From Hyphomicrobiales bacterium (GTDB lineage: Bacteria; Pseudomonadota; Alphaproteobacteria; Rhizobiales; Xanthobacteraceae): a stretch of DNA of 64,000 nt. Positions within the stretch are counted from its first letter, which is position 1, and each line of letters opens with the position of its first letter. The stretch spans positions 185 through 64,184 of the forward strand of contig JAFKKL010000010.1 of the NCBI GenBank assembly GCA_017305595.1, read 5' to 3'. Made by a program: the position numbers and the translations under genes. Shown in pieces: positions 1 to 45,838 of this stretch. The notes under the pieces are model-generated. The model ran no database searches, was not told the DNA's origin, and saw only the letters and a list, made by a program, of their open reading frames with translations.

Positions 1-669
1 TGCGCCCTTGATGTCGGCGGCGATGCCGGCGCGCGCCTTCTCGGGATCGCGCTTGACGATCGCGTCGAGAATTTCGGCATGGAAGCGCACCGCGCCGCCG
101 GTGTAGATGCGTTCGGGATTCTCGCGCAGGTCGAGATTGATGACCGGGCCGACCTTGAGCCACAGCGCGCGAATGATGCCGACCAGCGTCGGCGACTTCG
201 CCGCCTGATAGACCGCGAAGTGAAACTGCTTGTTGACCTCGACGGCGAGCGGCAGGTCCGGCGTGTCCGACAGGCTTTCGGCGCGCATTGCTTTTTCCGC
301 TGCGGCAATCGCAGGCAGATCGTCGTCAGTGTGATGCTCGGCGGCGAGCGCGGCGGCGTGGCCCTCGATGGCGATGCGGGTGGCGGTGATGTCACGAAAC
401 TGCGCCGCGGACATCACCGGCACGCGGATGGCGCGGTTGGGCGCGACCTCCAGCGCTTTGTCGGCGACGAGGCGCGACACCGCCGCGCGCACCGGCATGA
501 TGGAGACGCCGAGCACTTCGGCGGCGCCGCGCAGCGACAGCTTCTCGCCGGGGGCGAGTCGCCCCGAGATCAACAGGTCGGCGATCCGTGCATAGGCCCG
601 TTCGCCCAGCGTCAGCCGCTCCAGCGGCTCTTCCAGCACCAGCGCGGCGGGCAGGTTCAAGGCATTCAC
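1..669 (-). CDS. GntR-family (FadR/FCD-type) transcriptional regulator; C-terminal end lies outside the window
   Basis: Not in the ORF track because there is no stop inside the window. Hand translation of the minus strand from 669 gives VNALNLPAALVLEEPLERLTLGERAYARIADLLISGRLAPGEKLSLRGAAEVLGVSIMPVRAAVSRLVADKALEVAPNRAIRVP..., a GntR winged-helix N-terminus, open in frame to position 1. Start is GTG 669 or TTG 660 (GGAG about 8 nt upstream). The + ORF 79..678 is its antisense shadow. Confidence 0.8.
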   Translation of the reverse strand, partial: MNALNLPAALVLEEPLERLTLGERAYARIADLLISGRLAPGEKLSLRGAAEVLGVSIMPVRAAVSRLVADKALEVAPNRAIRVPVMSAAQFRDITATRIAIEGHAAALAAEHHTDDDLPAIAAAEKAMRAESLSDTPDLPLAVEVNKQFHFAVYQAAKSPTLVGIIRALWLKVGPVINLDLRENPERIYTGGAVRFHAEILDAIVKRDPEKARAGIAADIKGA

Positions 670-734
670 TCCGGTTAGGAGCCGCAAATAGCGAGAACGG
701 GACTCGACAAGCAAGGCAACTTTTGTCAGTCTAA

Positions 735-753
735 CCGTGATCACAGATCACGG
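735..753. promoter_or_regulatory. Perfect 8-3-8 inverted repeat CCGTGATC-ACA-GATCACGG in the GntR/ABC divergent intergenic region; candidate GntR operator
   Basis: Read directly at 735-753. It contains GT..AC cores, as in FadR/GntR-type operators, and lies between the divergent regulator and transporter genes. Confidence 0.4.
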
Positions 754-838
754 CAAGAAGCACCTCATCCAAAGAATGGTGCGCGCCACGGGACGAGGAC
801 GCCGCCGATGCGCGGCCACCACAGGGAAGGGAACATTC

Positions 839-2095
839 ATGGCTGACAATCCGCAGTTCACGCGCCGCCGCCTGCTGCAATCGGCAGGCGGGCTGGCATT
901 GGCGTCCACCGTCGCCGCGCCGTCGGTGCTGCTGGCGCAATCGTCCGACGTCATCCGCATCGGCCACCTGACGCCGCGCACCGGCTTCCTCGGGCCGCTC
1001 GGCGAATACGGCGTGATGGCCATCGACCTCGCGGTCGAGGAGATCAACGCCAAGGGCGGCGTGATGGGCCGCAAGATCGAACTGTTGAAGGAAGACTCGG
1101 TCAACCCACAGACCGCTTCCACCAAGGCCGAGCGCATGATCGAGCGCGACAAGGTCGCCTGTATCATCGGCGAGATTTCCTCGGCGTCGTGTCTCACCAT
1201 CGCGCAGGTGGCCCAGCGCAACAAGACGCTGTTCATCAACACCGGCGGCAACTCCGACGCGCTGCGCGGCTCCGACTGCAAACGCTACATGTTCCATGTC
1301 GAGTCGCAGAACTCGATGTATGTGAAGACGGCGGGCCGCGCCTTCCTGCGCGACGGGCTGGTGAAGGGCAAGAAGTGGTACTCGTTGACGGCGGACTACG
1401 CCTTCGGCCATGACCTCCTGAAAGTGTCGAAGCGCTTCATGCAGGCCAACGGCGGCGACTTCGCCGGTGACGATCTGGTGCCGACCGACGCTGCCGACTT
1501 CTCGTCGTATCTCTTGAAAATCCGCGACGCCAAGCCGGACCTCGTGGTGATCAACCTCGCCGGCAACCAGATCACAAACTTCCTGAAACAGTATGCCGAG
1601 TTCGGCCTGAAATTCCCGGTCGGCGGCTTCGGCTTCGACACCGCGCTGGCGTGGGCGGCGGGCAAGGGCAATTTCGTCGGCACCTGGCCGGTGGTGTGGC
1701 ATCACATGATCGACACCGCGGGCACCAAGGCTTTCGTCGGCGCCTTCACCAAGAAGTACAACAAGCCGCCGGAGAATCAGGCGTGGGGCGATTACATCGC
1801 CATGAAGATCGTGGCGCAGACCATCAACGATCTGAAGTCGCTGGAATCGCCGAAGATCATCGAGCATTTCGAGAAGGGCGCGAAGTTCGATCTTCTGAAG
1901 ACGCGCGAAGGTTACTTCCGCGCCTCCGATCACCAGCTGATGCACGAGATGTATACGGTGACGGCGCTGCCCGCCGACAAGATCAAGAACCAGTGGGACA
2001 TCTTCAGTTCGGGCGCGCCGGTGCCGGGCCCGGATGAAAGTCTCGAAGTGATTGCAGCGACCAAGGAAGAAAACAGCTGCACGTTCCCGACCTGA
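839..2095 (+). CDS. ABC transporter substrate-binding protein, Leu/Ile/Val-binding (HAAT) family, Tat signal
   Basis: ORF 737..2095 trimmed to ATG 839 (purine-rich GGGAAGGGA just upstream). MADNPQFTRRRLLQSAGGLALAS...AQS is a twin-arginine signal. The body resembles LivJ/LivK-type periplasmic binding proteins. Confidence 0.9.
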   Translation: MADNPQFTRRRLLQSAGGLALASTVAAPSVLLAQSSDVIRIGHLTPRTGFLGPLGEYGVMAIDLAVEEINAKGGVMGRKIELLKEDSVNPQTASTKAERMIERDKVACIIGEISSASCLTIAQVAQRNKTLFINTGGNSDALRGSDCKRYMFHVESQNSMYVKTAGRAFLRDGLVKGKKWYSLTADYAFGHDLLKVSKRFMQANGGDFAGDDLVPTDAADFSSYLLKIRDAKPDLVVINLAGNQITNFLKQYAEFGLKFPVGGFGFDTALAWAAGKGNFVGTWPVVWHHMIDTAGTKAFVGAFTKKYNKPPENQAWGDYIAMKIVAQTINDLKSLESPKIIEHFEKGAKFDLLKTREGYFRASDHQLMHEMYTVTALPADKIKNQWDIFSSGAPVPGPDESLEVIAATKEENSCTFPT

Positions 2096-39621: not shown

Positions 39622-40950
39622 TTAAAAGAAGGCGAGGTCTTGGGCTCGCTTGCCGCTGACGCCGGTTGCATATTCGATGGCGAGAAACAGGCCACCGGCG
39701 ACAAAAATCCGGCGTCCCTGCGCGATCGCGAGCTCGGTACTCAATGTTACGGCGTCCTCGATAGTGACGGCGACATGGATTGCCGCGACCGGGTTGGCGC
39801 GCCGCGCAGCGGCGGCAATGTGCTCGGGTGGAGCGCCCTTATGATAGGCCGCCGTGCAAATGATCATATCGAACGCTGGCGCCAGCAGTGCGACGATCTC
39901 GTCGGCGCTCTTGTCGTGCGAGACGCCGGCCACCAGCAGCCAATCCTCCTTGCCGTGGGCTTGATGCAGGCCGGCGAGCGCGCGAGCGATGCCATCCGGC
40001 GTATGGCCAACATCGATTACGGTCAGCGGATCGCGGCGGATCGCTTCCAGCCGGCCCGGCCACTTGGTTTGCGATAGACCATCGCGGACGGCGCGAGTCA
40101 GCGCAGCGTCATTCAGCGGAGTCGATGCGGCTTGCGCCCAGCACGAGAACAAACTTGCGGCGATGGCGGCGTTGTTGATCTGGAATGAGCCGGACAGTCC
40201 GATGGTCAGATCGCGGAAGTGATATCCGTCAACGGTGAGGTCAAAGCGTTCGCCGCTCGATGTGGTTTGCTCGCTATGGATATCGATCTCGTCGCGAACG
40301 AACACGCTTTTGACGTCGCGGCTTCGATTGTAGGCGAGGAGATGATCGCGCAGCGGCCGGCAGTTCTCGCCATAAATGATCGTGCCGCTGGCCGCGCAGG
40401 CGTCGCTTTTGTCGGAGGCGATCAGGGCGAGCGAATTGCCGAGCAGGCTGACGTGCTCGAGATCGACCGAGGCGACGCAGGTCGTGGCGGCGCCGACCAG
40501 CCGCACTGGATCGTAGCGGCCGCCGATCCCGGCCTCGAACACCATGAAGTCGCATGCCTCCTGTTTAAAATATAGGCAAGCCAGCGCAAATTGGGCTTCG
40601 AACGCTCCGAATCGCTCGTTGCGCTGTCGCGAAAGGTTGTCGATGTTTTCCGCGATGTGAGCGATCAATTCGGTTAAACGCGCATCGTCGATCGAAACGC
40701 TATCGATCCGAAAGCGTTCGTTAAAACGATAGAGATGCGGCGAGGTGAAAAGTCCGGTCCGCAAGCCGGCGGCGCGGCCGATGCTGGCGCAGAATGCCGC
40801 GGTGCTGCCTTTGCCGTTGGAGCCGGTGACAACGACGGATCGACGTCGGAGACGCTCGCGGTCGATGGCAAGCGTATCAAGCAGCGCAGTGAGCCGCGCG
40901 AGGCAGATACCGTCGCCGTATTTGGGCAGATCAAACATGCAGCAGGCCAA
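39622..40950 (-). CDS. FolC-like Mur-ligase-family protein (folylpolyglutamate synthase paralogue; function unknown)
   Basis: VVVTGSNGKGSTAAF P-loop, TSPHLYRFNERFRI, FEAGIGGRYD, DLEHVSLLGNSLALIASDKS, GSFQINNAA, WPGRLE, VIDVGHTPDG. Start ATG 40950 or 40938. It overlaps the upstream ATP-grasp gene. Confidence 0.8.
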   Translation of the reverse strand: MACCMFDLPKYGDGICLARLTALLDTLAIDRERLRRRSVVVTGSNGKGSTAAFCASIGRAAGLRTGLFTSPHLYRFNERFRIDSVSIDDARLTELIAHIAENIDNLSRQRNERFGAFEAQFALACLYFKQEACDFMVFEAGIGGRYDPVRLVGAATTCVASVDLEHVSLLGNSLALIASDKSDACAASGTIIYGENCRPLRDHLLAYNRSRDVKSVFVRDEIDIHSEQTTSSGERFDLTVDGYHFRDLTIGLSGSFQINNAAIAASLFSCWAQAASTPLNDAALTRAVRDGLSQTKWPGRLEAIRRDPLTVIDVGHTPDGIARALAGLHQAHGKEDWLLVAGVSHDKSADEIVALLAPAFDMIICTAAYHKGAPPEHIAAAARRANPVAAIHVAVTIEDAVTLSTELAIAQGRRIFVAGGLFLAIEYATGVSGKRAQDLAFF

Positions 40951-41941
40951 TGGAGATGAAGGTATGACGCCAGATTGTCAGGATCAGGTCGTCCCGCCCG
41001 CTGTCCTCAAGAAAGCGGATCGACGGATTGGCATTGATCTCGATCACAGCCATGGCGGCGGGGTCGCCATCGACGCCGGTGAAAAGATCGACGGCAGCGG
41101 CGCGCAAGCCCAAGGCTTGAGTCGCGCGGCGCGCCAACGTCACGGCAAATTCGTGGTGATGCGGTCGTGCAAATGCCATCGCGCCGCCGGCGCTTCGGTT
41201 CATCCGTCCCGGCAATTCCCGACTTTGCCCCGCCGGGAGAATGCGGCCGGCTTCTCCGGCATCGTCGAAAGTTACGCCGCTCGGCGAGAGGCCGTGGGCT
41301 TGCAGATTGCGATCGTGCACGGCGAGCAGTTCGCGTAGCGAATGCATGCCGTCGCCTGTGAGAGTTGGCGGAAACTTGCGAACGGTGAAGACTTCGTTCC
41401 CGTCGAGCAGAAATATCCGATATTCGTCGCCGCTGACGGTCGGCTGAAGCAGGACCGAATCATAGAACTGCGCCACCTCGTCCATGTAGTTGACCAGTGT
41501 ATCCGGACCAGTCAGCGGCCGGGCGAAATCGCCGCGCGATCCATTCAGCGGCTTGGCGAAAGCATGGTGGTCGAGGCTGGCGAAATATGCCATCGCGTCG
41601 GTTCGTTCGTGGCCTGGCGGTCGATGCGCCCGATGGCGTGCATGCAGAAAGAAGTACTGACCAGACAGGGTGGATATCCCAGCGTCTTTGAGGATGCGCT
41701 GAGTGAAATATTTATCGTTCGCCAAGGTAGCTGCAGTAGCGTCGTTCTGCGGAAAGGCTGAGCAGCGACCGCCGCCGAAGCAATGGCTGGCTGTCTCCGA
41801 GGCTACCCTGAACAGCAATCCGGTATCACCGTCCAGAGACGTGAAACTCAGGCCGAGATTGGCGCAGGCGAATTCGGCATGGATGGTGTGATCGGGATAG
41901 AAGACCGGCTTGGACTGCCGAAGATCCTGAAGGGTGGGCAT
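40931..41941 (-). CDS. ATP-grasp ligase (RimK / cyanophycin-synthetase N-terminal-half-like)
   Basis: NDKYFTQRILKDAGIS, AKPLNGSRGDF, LLQPTVSGDEYRIFLLDGNEVFTVRKFPPTLTGDGMHSLRELL, AAVDLF...AVIEINANPS (Mg/ATP site). Confidence 0.7.
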   Translation of the reverse strand: MPTLQDLRQSKPVFYPDHTIHAEFACANLGLSFTSLDGDTGLLFRVASETASHCFGGGRCSAFPQNDATAATLANDKYFTQRILKDAGISTLSGQYFFLHARHRAHRPPGHERTDAMAYFASLDHHAFAKPLNGSRGDFARPLTGPDTLVNYMDEVAQFYDSVLLQPTVSGDEYRIFLLDGNEVFTVRKFPPTLTGDGMHSLRELLAVHDRNLQAHGLSPSGVTFDDAGEAGRILPAGQSRELPGRMNRSAGGAMAFARPHHHEFAVTLARRATQALGLRAAAVDLFTGVDGDPAAMAVIEINANPSIRFLEDSGRDDLILTIWRHTFISIGLLHV

Positions 41942-42232
41942 GAGTGTAACGGCGGCGTGAGGGAAAGAACGCTCCAGTGGAACGCACAGGTGAATTCTAT
42001 CTGATCGGACCCTGCCGATCCATCGTCAGCTTTGATCGTCCCGAGGTATAAGGAACCCTTGCCCAAAAATCCCCGTTGGCGGCGTGTCCGCACTCAATGG
42101 TTGCTTTTGGTTGATCCCGCACCGAAGATGGTTGACGTTCGACGCTGTGATAAGATGTCCTCAGAATGATTTTCATACAGAAGTGTTAAGATAAACGCCA
42201 CGACGCTCCGACAGTGTCATCGCGTAACTGCG

Positions 42233-43900
42233 GTGATGGTCGCGACGCCAGGAACGGCAATGCCCAAGGACATGATGGAAACCTTGATGATTCCATTTTC
42301 GCCGCGCTTCATCGTGCTGACGATATGCGCCGTGATCACTGCACTGCTTCTCGGCCTCGCGATTGTCGATCACAGGATCGTCAACCTGGTCGTCATTCCG
42401 ATTCTGATCTTCGGCGGGCTCACGCTGCTCGGCATTCACGATCTGGTGCAGAAGGATCATGCAGTTCTGCGCAATTATCCGATCTCGGCGCATTTGCGTT
42501 TTCTGCTCGAGGAAATCCGCCCGGAGATGCGGCAATACTTCTTCGAAAGCGAGAAGGACGGGATGCCGTTTAGCCGCGATACGCGGGCCGTGGTGTATCA
42601 ACGCGCCAAGATGGTGCTCGACAAGCGGCCGTTCGGGACGCAGGAGAATGTTTACTCCGACGGCTACGAGTGGATGCAGCACTCAATCGCGCCGAAGCCG
42701 CGGGTCACTGAAAAGTTTCGCATCACGATTGGCGGTCCGGAATGCACCAAGCCTTATTCTGCGTCGGTATTCAACATTTCGGCGATGAGCTTCGGCGCGC
42801 TCAGTCCCAACGCTGTTCGCGCGTTGAATGCGGGCGCGAAAAAAGGTGGATTCGCCCATGATACCGGGGAGGGCGGCGTCAGCCCGTATCATCAGGAGAA
42901 CGGCGGCGATCTGATCTGGGAGGTCGGTTCGGGCTATTTCGGTTGCCGGACGCGCGATGGCGCTTTCGATCCGGAGGCGTTTGCACGTGTCGCAAGCCTC
43001 GACCAGATCAAGATGGTGGAATTGAAGATCAGCCAGGGCGCCAAGCCGGGCCATGGTGGTGTCTTGCCGGCGGCGAAAGTTTCCGAGGAAATATCGCGGA
43101 TTCGCGGTGTGTCGATGGGCGAGGACTGCATTTCGCCTGCGGGCCACTCGGCATTTTCGACGCCACTCGAGATGATGGCATTCATCGGTGAGATGCGCCG
43201 GCTCTCAGGCGGCAAACCGGCGGGCTTCAAGCTGTGCATCGGCCATCGCTGGGAATTTCTCGCGATCTGCAAGGCGATGCTGCAAACCGGTATCTATCCG
43301 GACTTCATCGTGGTCGACGGCAACGAGGGCGGCACTGGTGCTGCGCCGCTGGAGTTCATGGATCATCTCGGGATGCCGATGCGCGAAGGCGTCAACTTCG
43401 TGCACAACGCTTTGGTGGGATTGAATATCCGCGATCGAATCAAAATCGGTGCATCCGGCAAGATCGCGACCGCTTTCGATATCGCCCGCGCGATGGCGCT
43501 GGGTGCGGACTGGTGCAATTCGGCGCGCGGCTTCATGTTCGCGCTCGGCTGCATTCAGTCGTTAAGCTGTCATACCGATCGATGTCCAACCGGCGTGACC
43601 ACGCAGGACCCCTCGCGTAATCGTGCGCTGGTGGTGCCGCACAAACTTGAGCGCGTTTACAATTATCATCACGCCACGCTTCACGCGTTGTCGGAATTGA
43701 TCGCCGCGGCCGGCCTCAGTCATCCAGATGAGATCCGGCCGGTGCACTTCTCGCATCGGCTCACAGGGACGGAGGTAATGTCGTTCGCGCGGCTTTATCC
43801 GGAATTGCGGCCGGGAGAGCTGTTGTCAGGCACGGAGAATCCGCGCTTCCGCGATGCTTGGGCAATGGCGCGGGCGGACTCGTTCGCGCCGGCGACATAA
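42233..43900 (+). CDS. FMN-binding glutamate synthase (GltB domain 2) family protein with an N-terminal membrane anchor
   Basis: TM segments FIVLTICAVITALLLGLAIV / VVIPILIFGGLTLLGI, then NYPISAHLRFLLEEIRPE, FNISAMSFGALS, GEGG, VELKISQGAKPGHGG, VVDGNEGGTGAAP. Start uncertain (42233-42287). Confidence 0.85.
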   Translation: MMVATPGTAMPKDMMETLMIPFSPRFIVLTICAVITALLLGLAIVDHRIVNLVVIPILIFGGLTLLGIHDLVQKDHAVLRNYPISAHLRFLLEEIRPEMRQYFFESEKDGMPFSRDTRAVVYQRAKMVLDKRPFGTQENVYSDGYEWMQHSIAPKPRVTEKFRITIGGPECTKPYSASVFNISAMSFGALSPNAVRALNAGAKKGGFAHDTGEGGVSPYHQENGGDLIWEVGSGYFGCRTRDGAFDPEAFARVASLDQIKMVELKISQGAKPGHGGVLPAAKVSEEISRIRGVSMGEDCISPAGHSAFSTPLEMMAFIGEMRRLSGGKPAGFKLCIGHRWEFLAICKAMLQTGIYPDFIVVDGNEGGTGAAPLEFMDHLGMPMREGVNFVHNALVGLNIRDRIKIGASGKIATAFDIARAMALGADWCNSARGFMFALGCIQSLSCHTDRCPTGVTTQDPSRNRALVVPHKLERVYNYHHATLHALSELIAAAGLSHPDEIRPVHFSHRLTGTEVMSFARLYPELRPGELLSGTENPRFRDAWAMARADSFAPAT

Positions 43901-43958: not shown

Positions 43959-45838
43959 CTAGAACTCGCCGTGCAGGCGTCCTGAGAAGATCGAAACTGG
44001 ACCTCGGTCGGCGTTGTAAGCCGGATTGACGATCAGCTGATAGTCGGCCGTAAAGGTCAGTTGTTTGTTGAGCGCGAAGGCGTAGTAGGTTTCGAGAATC
44101 CGTTCGTTGCGGTAGTTCAGCCGGCCGTCGCCGATCAGCACGCCGAGCCCGCCGGCGGCAATGAAATCGCGATGGTCTTTCGACAACGCGTTGACCGCGC
44201 CGCCGATACCCACGACGTCGTCGGGGCGACCCCAGCGCGTGCCCTTGATCGATGCGCCGAGCGACAGGCTGGCGTCGATATCGGTGAACGCCATGATTTC
44301 CGTCTTGCCATCGTTCCAGCTCCAGCGCCCGAACAGGCCGATGTCATCCGTCAAGGCTTGTTCGAGATTGAGAACGTAGCCGTATTTGATGCGGCCACGA
44401 CGGGTCTGGGTGATATCGAGATTGAAAGCCGGAGTGGCGAGCGTTTCGCGATAGCTGCCGGAATAGGCGCTATTGAGCCAGCCGATGGTGCGCAGCTTGC
44501 CGGGTTGACCGAATAACGAATAGCGCGTCTCCAGTTCGACGACGTATTCGCCGCGCCGGAACAGGCGCATGTCGAAGTTGTTGGAATTGGACTCGGCGTC
44601 CATCAAGAAATAGCCGGCGCGCAGCGCATGAAATCGCGGCGAGGGTCTTTCGCATAGGCATTGCCGTCGAACACGTCGGTGACGGCGAATTTACCAGCCT
44701 GAACGGTCAGACGCGACACATCTACTTTGCCGGCGAGTTGCGTCGGACCGCTCGCGAGTTCTTCCTGCTCGCCGCCAAAGCCGAACGTCTGCCGCACGAA
44801 CAGCCGTGAGGTGTTGTAGTGCGGATAAGGGAAATCGGATTTTTGCGCCTCGCCACTGGGAAACCCGCCAGCGCCGACGGTGTCGCTGAGGCCGAAGCCC
44901 TGCGCCAGTTCGGGGTTGTAGTAGATCTCGCCGCCGTCCCACAGCCGCGCGTTGAGAAACAGGCTGTTGCTCCAGGTCGCCTTCATCTGGGCGTTCGGCG
45001 TTAGGCTGTTCGGGCCGGAGTAGGGCGCGCGAAAGGTCGGATACCCTTGCGCGAGATAAGTGGTCTGGCCGTGAATTTCCCAGCGGTCGGATTCCGGTTC
45101 GATCCACTTTGCTGGCGATGTCAAGCTGGAGGCGACATCGCCGATCTTGCGGTTGAGCCCGATGCGCAACGACTGGAAGTCATGAGTCGACGCGTAACGC
45201 GTGCCGGACGCGAACGTGACGTTGGTGCTGCCGAGATCGCTGTAGAGATACTCGAGCCGCGCCGACCAATGGGGCGCGAAGGCATATTCGATACCCGCGC
45301 CCGCGACCCAGCCGAACCGTTGCCGAAGCTGTTTTTCCTCGTCGCCGGATGGTGGCGTGTTGACGAAGCGCGTGCTGCTCCAGGCGAGGCCGCCGGTCGC
45401 GTAAGTCAGCCACGGTCCATTGACGATGCCGAGGCGCCCGCGCGCCGTGCCGACCATGTCGAATTTCTCGGTGACATCCGAACGGGCAGACCCCAGCGCG
45501 GAAATGACGGAGTTCGAATCAATGTAGTTGGGAAATGAAACATCGGCCTCGATCCCGAACAGGATACCGGACGGCGACACCCAATTGGCGCCCGCTTGGA
45601 GGCCGCTGATCATGCCGCCGAAAGTGTTGCTCGCGCCGATCGCGTTCGGATCGGCAAGGGTGGTCGAAGAATGGCCCCGGCCGAAGCCGGCATGGGCGCC
45701 GATATAAAGCCCATTCCAATCGACTGAAAGTGCGGCCGGGTCCGCCTTAAGCGGGCGCATTGGCGGCAGGTCGGCCGCCGTCGCCGCGCTCCCCAGTGCA
45801 GATAGGCCCGATGCAAGGATGATCCATACCGATTTCAT
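43959..45838 (-). pseudogene. OprB-family carbohydrate porin with an extra N-terminal Omp25/OMP_b-brl-like barrel module; reading frame broken near 44604-44640
   Basis: ORF 44603..45838 has a signal peptide, an ~235-aa small-barrel module (ends LRIGLNRKIG) and the OprB N-half up to DPRRDFM. ORF 43959..44606 has the OprB C-half, ending ..GRLHGEF. A second frame reads ALRAGYFLMDAESNSNNFD directly after DFM, so the two halves abut in different frames. About 35 aa that I expect from my recollection of the OprB family appear to be missing. Confidence 0.6.

Follow-up and report, generated by a model that had tools for sequence, protein, structure and literature searches.

A conserved pair of an ATP-grasp ligase gene and a FolC-like ligase gene, predicted to act in succession on one substrate

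Introduction

What would a bacterium make with two overlapping ligase genes, one related to the ATP-grasp half of cyanophycin synthetase (CphA) and the other to FolC, the enzyme of folate polyglutamylation? This question is raised by a locus on contig JAFKKL010000010.1 of a Hyphomicrobiales bacterium (assembly GCA_017305595.1), in a stretch of 64,000 nucleotides (nt) analysed as a whole and hereafter called the window. On its minus strand a gene for an ATP-grasp protein is directly followed by a gene for a FolC-type protein with a Mur-ligase fold. The original prediction, made from the letters of the DNA, described them as a split cyanophycin-synthetase-like module. We report here that the two genes very probably constitute a dedicated two-ligase module, and we weigh what this module may produce.

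The literature search found no description of a pairing of ATP-grasp and FolC-like genes in the papers and curated families retrieved, in line with the original statement that no characterised pathway has it. Public records name the proteins “hypothetical protein” or “ATP-grasp domain-containing protein”, or carry automatic “FolC” or “cyanophycin synthetase” labels. Both folds and both chemistries are familiar; what appears to be new is their fixed pairing.

Results and discussion

The two genes form a conserved pair

The two minus-strand open reading frames (ORFs) lie where the original prediction had placed them. All the motifs that it quoted were found, i.e. AKPLNGSRG, EINANPS and DEYRIFLLDGNEVF in the first protein, and TGSNGKGST, TSPHL..FNERF, FEAGIGGRYD, WPGRLE and DVGHTPDG in the second. 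The catalytic motifs of both proteins are intact. The features of the pair are the following.

40931 to 41941, minus strand: first gene of the pair, predicted stand-alone ATP-grasp amino-acid ligase of 336 amino acids (aa), from the ORF and from profile, PDB and Foldseek matches
39622 to 40938, minus strand: second gene of the pair, FolC/FPGS-family Mur-fold ligase of a distinct subfamily, 438 aa from the ATG at 40938
40931 to 40938, minus strand: 8-nt overlap ATGTTTGA, the start codon of the FolC-like gene lying over the stop codon of the ATP-grasp gene, read from the sequence

The longest form of the FolC-like ORF extends from 39622 to 40950 and begins at a TTG at 40950. The overlap of 20 nt (40931-40950) initially proposed presupposes this TTG. 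We place the start at the ATG at 40938 because the N-terminus MFDLPKYG is conserved, all homologues of the protein beginning with it, and because the gene calls on an independent contig with identical proteins also start there. The real overlap is 8 nt. On the minus strand the junction reads ...CTG CAT GTT TGA in one frame and ATG TTT GAT in the other. Among 124 paired loci this ATG..TGA layout is the commonest type of junction (47 loci); the others are overlaps of 4 nt (16 loci) or 1 nt (19 loci), or short gaps. From its sequence, this overlap of start and stop codons predicts translational coupling of the two genes.

The conservation of the pair was followed in three samples, in all of which the FolC-like genes were reached via their ATP-grasp partner. 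With one genome scanned per species, relatives of the ATP-grasp protein turned up in 219 species. The best 80 of these 219 were examined; they belong to Bradyrhizobium, Tardiphaga, Xanthobacteraceae and related metagenome-assembled genomes, and all 80 loci have the FolC-like gene directly downstream in the same orientation. The pair is present in complete genomes, among them Bradyrhizobium sp. RDT10 (CP187939.1) and Tardiphaga sp. (NZ_CP197245.1), and the FolC-like protein of R. palustris BisA53 has the UniProt entry Q07VG0. A search of cluster representatives gave 1,925 clusters with ATP-grasp relatives, many of them full length at 26-43% identity. The contexts of seven were examined, and the pair is kept in five of them (33-41% identity), as confirmed by tblastn: P0245, P0247 (78% GC), P0252 (73%), P0254 (45%) and P0258 (41%), the last from the cyanobacterium Symploca sp. 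SIO2B6. A metagenome scan seeded with a four-sequence alignment of distant members provided 40 full-length loci, 38 of them with downstream sequence; the next gene is FolC-like in all 38.

Altogether the pair is found in 124 of the 126 informative loci and in 25 of the 27 lineages into which the ATP-grasp proteins fall at 70% identity, and the GC content of the paired loci ranges from 41% to 78% between lineages. The pairwise divergences of the two proteins are strongly correlated (r = 0.97, Mantel p ~0.001), as expected for co-inherited partners. Within Nitrobacteraceae/Xanthobacteraceae the pair is stably inherited by vertical descent, and distant bacteria have it too, which bears out its description as a conserved functional pair. 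These comparisons indicate an autonomous two-enzyme operon, predicted to be translationally coupled and co-inherited across phyla.

The first gene encodes an ATP-grasp ligase related to CphA and GshF

The first protein has the ATP-grasp fold, and its ATP-binding lysine K130 and Mg-binding E301-x-N303 are invariant. It reaches the cut-off of no curated family, all Pfam and NCBIfam matches being sub-threshold. The best NCBIfam match is the ATP-grasp region of CphA (9e-17, model positions 204-450 of 862); further matches are to the C-terminal part of Ngg and to GshAB. RimK, MptN and Ddl match weakly (RimK TIGR00768, 26.9 bits vs a cut-off of 143; Ddl TIGR01205, 19.9 vs 246), the MptN and RimK matches covering the C-terminal third, and the Pfam matches ATPgrasp_ST and R2K_3 stay under their gathering scores. 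In the sequence search of the PDB, CphA1 and GshAB come first. The AlphaFold (AF2) model, of mean predicted local distance difference test (pLDDT) 87.9, retrieves GshF 3ln6 as first Foldseek match (8e-17), then CphA1 7wae (6e-16), CphA2 and Ddl.

The first gene is thereby an ATP-grasp gene akin to the CphA half, as first described, and its product stands outside characterised families of the Ddl or GshB type. It is a predicted stand-alone carboxylate-amine ligase of the clade formed by the CphA G domain, GshF and Ngg. The characterised enzymes of this clade lengthen their substrate by one amino acid at the C-terminal residue, whose alpha-carboxylate they first activate.

In an alignment to Synechocystis CphA1, read in TeCphA1 numbering, the residues K130, R175, K189, N248, S250 and R309 of the window protein correspond to K261, R309, R323, N394, S396 and R458 respectively. 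In TeCphA1 these six residues bind ATP, stabilise the acyl-phosphate and hold the incoming aspartate (PMC9427784). By analogy, the alignment weakly suggests that the ATP-grasp protein adds an acidic amino acid.

The one large fusion among the relatives, the cluster representative P0344 (1,042 aa), has an unusual architecture: its ATP-grasp domain is joined to a flavin amine oxidase and to a squalene-hopene-cyclase-like domain, and not to a Mur ligase.

The second gene encodes a FolC-like ligase of its own subfamily

The second protein carries the Mur_ligase_M and Mur_ligase_C domains. It scores 260 bits on the FolC subfamily model TIGR01499 (cut-off 162.65), and distant paired homologues score 215-253 bits. 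The PDB sequence search gives first the FPGS of Lactobacillus casei (2e-44), then the FolC proteins of T. maritima and M. tuberculosis, with E. coli FolC at 1e-25. With the AF2 model (pLDDT 83.5), 16 FolC/FPGS entries lead the Foldseek matches, with TM-scores (template modelling scores) of 0.70-0.82, the highest for M. tuberculosis FolC, as against ~0.6 for MurE; no CphA chain or M domain appears among the top 50. This agrees with the view that the gene is FolC-type rather than MurE-like. The features of FolC are present: P-loop, omega-loop SPHLxRFNER, FE motif, a lysine aligned with the carbamylated lysine, WPGRxE and DxxHxP.

The paired FolC-like proteins share with FolC/FPGS (TIGR01499; PDB 1fgs, 2vor, 1w78) the two-domain fold (TM 0.78-0.82 for the window protein) and the catalytic motifs, and they pass the subfamily cut-off. 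Disparities nevertheless appear. The E. coli-type equivalog NF008101 has a cut-off of 360 bits, while the window protein scores 126.5 and the paired proteins 94-127. Across phyla the paired proteins are 32-45% identical to each other and 22-29% identical to E. coli FolC or to the canonical FolC of locus L091, and in a neighbour-joining tree they cluster together, apart from canonical FolC. They have motifs without counterpart in canonical FolC: LPK[YF]GxG near the N-terminus, TGSNGKGS, GGLFLAxE and a C-terminal LxFF. In addition GGR[YF]DPxR replaces GGxxDA(T/V)N, and DVGHTP replaces the DxAHNP of canonical FolC. Finally, the paired gene differs from folC by its position: in 25 of the 27 ATP-grasp lineages it comes immediately behind the ATP-grasp gene.

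Besides the pair, two loci hold a second gene of the canonical folC type. The one in L091 (8623-9903, minus strand) follows the pair immediately, in convergent orientation; in L132 a canonical-type fragment lies one gene upstream of the pair (79-609, minus strand). The L091 gene scores higher than its paired neighbour, with 321 vs 215 bits on TIGR01499 and 220 vs 94 on NF008101. These two loci represent unrelated high-GC lineages and provide the sole recurring hint of a link to folate. The paired FolC-like protein is placed outside housekeeping FolC and, in these two loci, occurs together with one, an outcome in favour of the original prediction. By sequence we assign it to a distinct paralogous subfamily and not to the orthologues of housekeeping FolC.

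The conserved tail GGLFLAxE...L-x-F-F ends the paired FolC-like proteins (39622-39660 of the window, minus strand), and canonical FolC is without it. This tail may be a docking element for the ATP-grasp partner.

The pair may perform two consecutive ligations on one substrate

Considered as a whole, the data are best explained by a two-ligase operon carrying out consecutive ligations on one substrate, a folate-like glutamyl tail being favoured as product. This reading is drawn by analogy with the enzyme families, and we give it about an even chance (probability ~0.5).

The two enzymes would act in succession, each of them using ATP to activate a carboxylate as acyl-phosphate before the amide bond is made. 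If the FolC-like enzyme behaves as FolC does, it would attach L-glutamate either to an aryl carboxylate or to the gamma-carboxylate of a glutamyl residue, and the alpha-carboxylate thereby left free would receive an amino acid, probably acidic, from the ATP-grasp enzyme. A gamma link would thus be followed by an alpha link, or the order would be the reverse. The product is probably intracellular, since no exporter, tailoring enzyme, hydrolase or regulator travels with the pair. It is rather probable that glutamate or aspartate is a building block.

As to the product itself, we tentatively propose that a folate-like (or p-aminobenzoyl-glutamate-type) cofactor receives a short glutamyl tail of mixed gamma and alpha links. 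This tail is favoured because characterised FolC enzymes use pteroyl substrates, because folC adjoins the pair in two lineages and because precedents exist. FolC enzymes proceed by acyl-phosphate activation and add L-glutamate to the aryl carboxylate of dihydropteroate or to the gamma-carboxylate of the last glutamate; to our knowledge every characterised enzyme of the family acts on pteroyl substrates. Among the precedents, CofF caps F420 with an alpha-glutamate and MptN adds an alpha-glutamate to give sarcinapterin. In E. coli, alpha linkages were reported in the distal part of folate tails (PMC1971073). MyfA and MyfB, acting in sequence, build the polyglutamate chain of methylofuran (PMC8141765).

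The pair resembles the systems of F420 (CofE/CofF), sarcinapterin (MptN) and methylofuran (MyfA/MyfB) by dedicated, ATP-dependent gamma/alpha ligation of glutamate to a cofactor. It differs from them in that their ATP-grasp enzymes are RimK-type, that of the pair being of the CphA/GshF type, and in that they have no partner of FolC fold. C1-cofactor genes are also absent near the pair. We considered whether the pair could be the methylofuran tail enzymes themselves and rejected this identity, those enzymes being two RimK-type ATP-grasp proteins without a FolC-like partner.

Several points weigh against the succession of ligations on a folate-like substrate. The mechanism is built on family analogy. 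The acidic nature of the amino acid is a weak inference because the large-loop asparagine and serine are also conserved in GshF, which adds glycine, and because the arginine aligned with R458 of TeCphA1 varies in distant members of the family. In the paired subfamily other sequence stands in the place of two segments of canonical FolC, the N-terminal loop and GGRxDA(T/V)N; we take both to be close to the pteroate pocket, and the substrate may accordingly be something other than a pterin. Because these substrate-loop motifs are altered, some probability goes to a polymer or to a small peptide as product. There is no second folC in the 64-kb window, to which this search was limited, and Rfam gave no folate or riboswitch signal upstream. 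Finally, two ATP-grasp lineages at ~40% identity (P0244 and P0248) have no adjacent FolC-like gene.

Alternative products: a polymer or a small peptide

The comparison with CphA leads to the first alternative, a two-protein analogue of cyanophycin synthetase making a free storage or structural poly-amino-acid. The ATP-grasp enzyme would extend an alpha-linked backbone, the FolC-like enzyme decorating side-chain carboxylates, or alpha and gamma links would alternate. The G domains of CphA1 and CphA2 are the best sequence and structure matches of the ATP-grasp protein, the order of the genes is that of the G and M domains, the six CphA1 residues aligned above, including those for carboxylate activation and aspartate binding, are kept, and a tight 1:1 translational coupling suits a complex. 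The CphA1 polypeptide (PDB 7lg5, 7wac, 7lgn), however, is a single N-G-M chain in which the N domain holds the polymer. The pair consists of two polypeptides and has no N domain, and its Mur-fold half is FolC-type, unrelated to the MurE-like M domain. On the CphA model TIGR02068 the two proteins score 60 bits (ATP-grasp) and 27 bits (FolC-like) vs a cut-off of 850. In none of the lineages examined is the pair accompanied by a cyanophycinase-like hydrolase or by another gene for degradation. In favour of a polymer there is also the activity of RimK and MyfB, which make polyglutamate from free glutamate (PMC8141765). On balance a free polymer seems unlikely.

With no fused form and a Mur-fold half derived from FolC, descent from a cyanophycin synthetase that was later split is not supported; “split cyanophycin synthetase” is an analogy and not a homology. 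The analogy may extend to the way of working. The pair could be a hitherto unrecognised two-protein synthetase operating like CphA, assembled from a CphA-type G module and a FolC-type module, with a new product of the mixed-linkage or branched oligo- or poly-glutamate type or an alpha-linked extension of folate polyglutamate tails. We regard this as possible but doubtful; if it is true, hundreds of genes at present annotated as FolC would have another function. We know of no gene assigned to the alpha-linked extension of folate polyglutamate tails.

The second alternative is a small free di- or tripeptide with a gamma-glutamyl bond, made in the manner of GshF or Ngg. Its role could be that of a compatible solute, of a signalling metabolite or of a molecule resembling glutathione but without the thiol. 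After CphA, GshF and Ngg are the closest characterised relatives of the ATP-grasp protein, and both make small peptides; GshF (GshAB) 3ln6 is the top structural match, and the sequence matches extend to the C-terminus of Ngg and to GshAB. A module of two genes without exporter or tailoring genes also suits a simple cytoplasmic metabolite. The neighbours of the pair have a loose relation to glutamate (Asp/Glu racemase, DctA/GltP-type symporter, sucAB and the gene with a glutamate-synthase (GltS) domain), but they vary between lineages and are weak evidence. Unlike GshF and Ngg, the ATP-grasp protein of the pair has neither a gamma-glutamylcysteine ligase domain nor a GNAT domain, and its partner is FolC-type; we know of no FolC-family enzyme acting on a free amino acid or a dipeptide. 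No osmotic or stress regulator is linked to the pair. We consider the small peptide improbable, to the same degree as the free polymer.

The divergent neighbour and the genomic surroundings

Two further features lie on the 5' side of the pair.

41942 to 42274, strand not applicable: divergent intergenic region of 333 nt, presumed promoter region, with no recognised element
42275 to 43900, plus strand: membrane-anchored protein with a flavin mononucleotide (FMN) glutamate-synthase domain (PF01645), a neighbour not supported as part of the module

In agreement with its initial description, the neighbour has the Glu_synthase FMN domain (PF01645, 1.7e-85) behind hydrophobic N-terminal segments. 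Its longest ORF occupies 42233-43900 of the plus strand from a GTG at 42233 (555 aa). The homologues start at the equivalent of the ATG at 42275 (METLM[IL]PFSPRF; METLMIPF... in the window), which gives 541 aa, and from sequence this ATG is the more likely start.

In Nitrobacteraceae the order of genes is porin, GltS-like gene, pair, qor and GST, with genes for a substrate-binding protein and a DctA/GltP-type symporter between the pair and qor. The pair occupies this same slot (GltS ... pair ... qor) in nearly all of the 80 genome loci that extend far enough; in L054 no GltS gene was seen within the 8-kb flank. One could therefore imagine a three-gene system in which the GltS-domain flavoprotein supplies or modifies a glutamate-derived substrate. 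The divergent adjacency in the window, across 333 nt, and the presence of the GltS-like gene within ~3 kb of the pair in most Nitrobacteraceae loci speak for it. The distance there is nevertheless variable (0.3-3 kb), with Fpr-like, patatin and cupin genes inserted in many relatives. The GltS-like protein is also far more conserved (83-97% identity) than the proteins of the pair (55-86%), the neighbours in general being at 83-98%. Outside Nitrobacteraceae-type loci no GltS-like gene was found near the pair in any lineage examined; the association is on this account an inherited, lineage-specific synteny. The functional link to the GltS-domain gene that had been suggested does not hold, and a three-gene system is very improbable.

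The contexts of the other lineages differ. In one, sucA, sucB and lpdA are upstream, and a rhodanese-domain protein gene and kup are downstream; another has PrkA, folC and ligA, and another YfhO. When all ORFs of 48 loci were clustered, no third gene common to the lineages was found, and only lineage-specific synteny appeared. Glutamate and dicarboxylate themes recur loosely among the neighbours of the pair, which may be a hint.

Some of these contexts deserve a record of their own. In one lineage of 62-66% GC (L102-L119, L124, L135 and L136) genes for a patatin-like lipase and an Asp/Glu racemase are directly downstream of the pair, and genes for an agmatine deiminase, an N-carbamoylputrescine amidase and a GntR regulator are nearby; a patatin gene is also near the pair in some Nitrobacteraceae loci. 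A protein of ~370 aa adjoins the pair in two distant lineages (L094:2440-3549 and L132:723-1790, both on the minus strand; 29% identity, 153 bits). It has hydrophobic C-terminal segments and no Pfam or NCBIfam match. On the 78% GC contig of L088 a gene for a secreted protein of the alkaline-phosphatase superfamily (303-1235, plus strand) overlaps the start of the ATP-grasp gene by 4 nt and appears to be a third member of the operon. Of the two ATP-grasp lineages without an adjacent FolC-like gene (L083-L086 and L089-L090), one has bioB and a TOBE-domain gene as neighbours, the other dcd and surE.

In the window the porin gene downstream of the GltS-like gene (43959-45838, minus strand) is broken. 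In the relatives L003 and L030 it is one ORF of ~658-661 aa, while here residues 1-407 are in one frame and 437-658 in another, and the ~29 codons between them are missing. This corresponds to a deletion with frameshift near 44618-44627, i.e. either a pseudogene or an assembly error.

Composition, upstream region and mobility

The low GC content of the module had been taken as a sign of an accessory, possibly acquired unit. The low GC content holds for the segment 40560-40740, which with 50.3% GC belongs to the lowest 0.3% of 181-nt windows and is a genuine local outlier. It forms a sharp trough within the FolC-like gene and encodes the stretch from the omega loop into the variable helical region that follows. 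For the pair overall the deviation is slight, the GC content (61.2%) being two points under that of the whole window (63.2%), a weak signal shared or exceeded by 12.6% of equal-sized windows. The GC content at third codon positions is 0.68 for the ATP-grasp gene and 0.73 for the FolC-like gene, and 0.73-0.82 for the neighbours. The intergenic segment 41942-42232 is at 52.6% GC.

In the sample used for this question, made up of loci that carry the pair, a recent acquisition is not supported, given the fixed chromosomal slot, the absence of a plasmid copy and the weak GC deviation. The search of plasmids returned two remote ATP-grasp matches and no pair. No mobility genes were noted near the pair, and PADLOC gave no defence-system match.

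In the intergenic region upstream of the pair no sigma-70-like site was found, and the scan for promoters and terminators gave nothing above chance. A riboswitch or other RNA element upstream was rejected, there being no Rfam match at E <= 1. A precursor peptide, either for a ribosomally synthesised and post-translationally modified peptide (RiPP) or for a RimK-like modification, was likewise rejected, no small ORF upstream being conserved beyond the closest relatives.

A housekeeping folC is highly improbable and a broken fusion excluded

The FolC-like gene could also be a housekeeping or redundant folC with an unrelated ATP-grasp gene beside it. The score above the TIGR01499 cut-off, the FolC annotation in public records and the lack of another folC in the window are compatible with this. 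But the pairing recurs in 25 lineages with unrelated contexts, the paired proteins form a separate clade far below the equivalog cut-off, a higher-scoring canonical folC or a canonical-type fragment accompanies the pair in L091 and L132, and the pair diverges faster than its core neighbours. A housekeeping role is hence highly improbable, slightly more so than the three-gene system.

As for a frameshift, by sequencing error or mutation, in an ancestrally fused gene, only the overlap itself points to it, and we dismiss it: in the 124 paired loci the two ORFs are regularly separate, with overlaps of 8, 4 or 1 nt as the usual junction, the independent contig with identical proteins has the same gene calls, and no fused ATP-grasp-Mur protein (~770 aa) exists among these loci, the top 150 cluster representatives or the 240 listed homologues. 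A 776-aa “fusion” in L101 proved to be a frame artefact, due to spurious long ORFs of high GC content in the ORF clustering.

Conclusion

The module is made of two genes only; it is robust, widespread and cheaply testable. Should its product prove to be a new glutamyl-type tail, peptide or polymer, a biosynthetic route would be added to abundant soil and freshwater Alphaproteobacteria, the hosts concerned being Bradyrhizobium, Tardiphaga, Rhodopseudomonas and Rhizomicrobium, together with at least one cyanobacterium. A systematic misannotation as FolC would then be corrected, and the pair would be a second, independently assembled case of the CphA logic, in which an ATP-grasp ligase is combined with a Mur-fold ligase.

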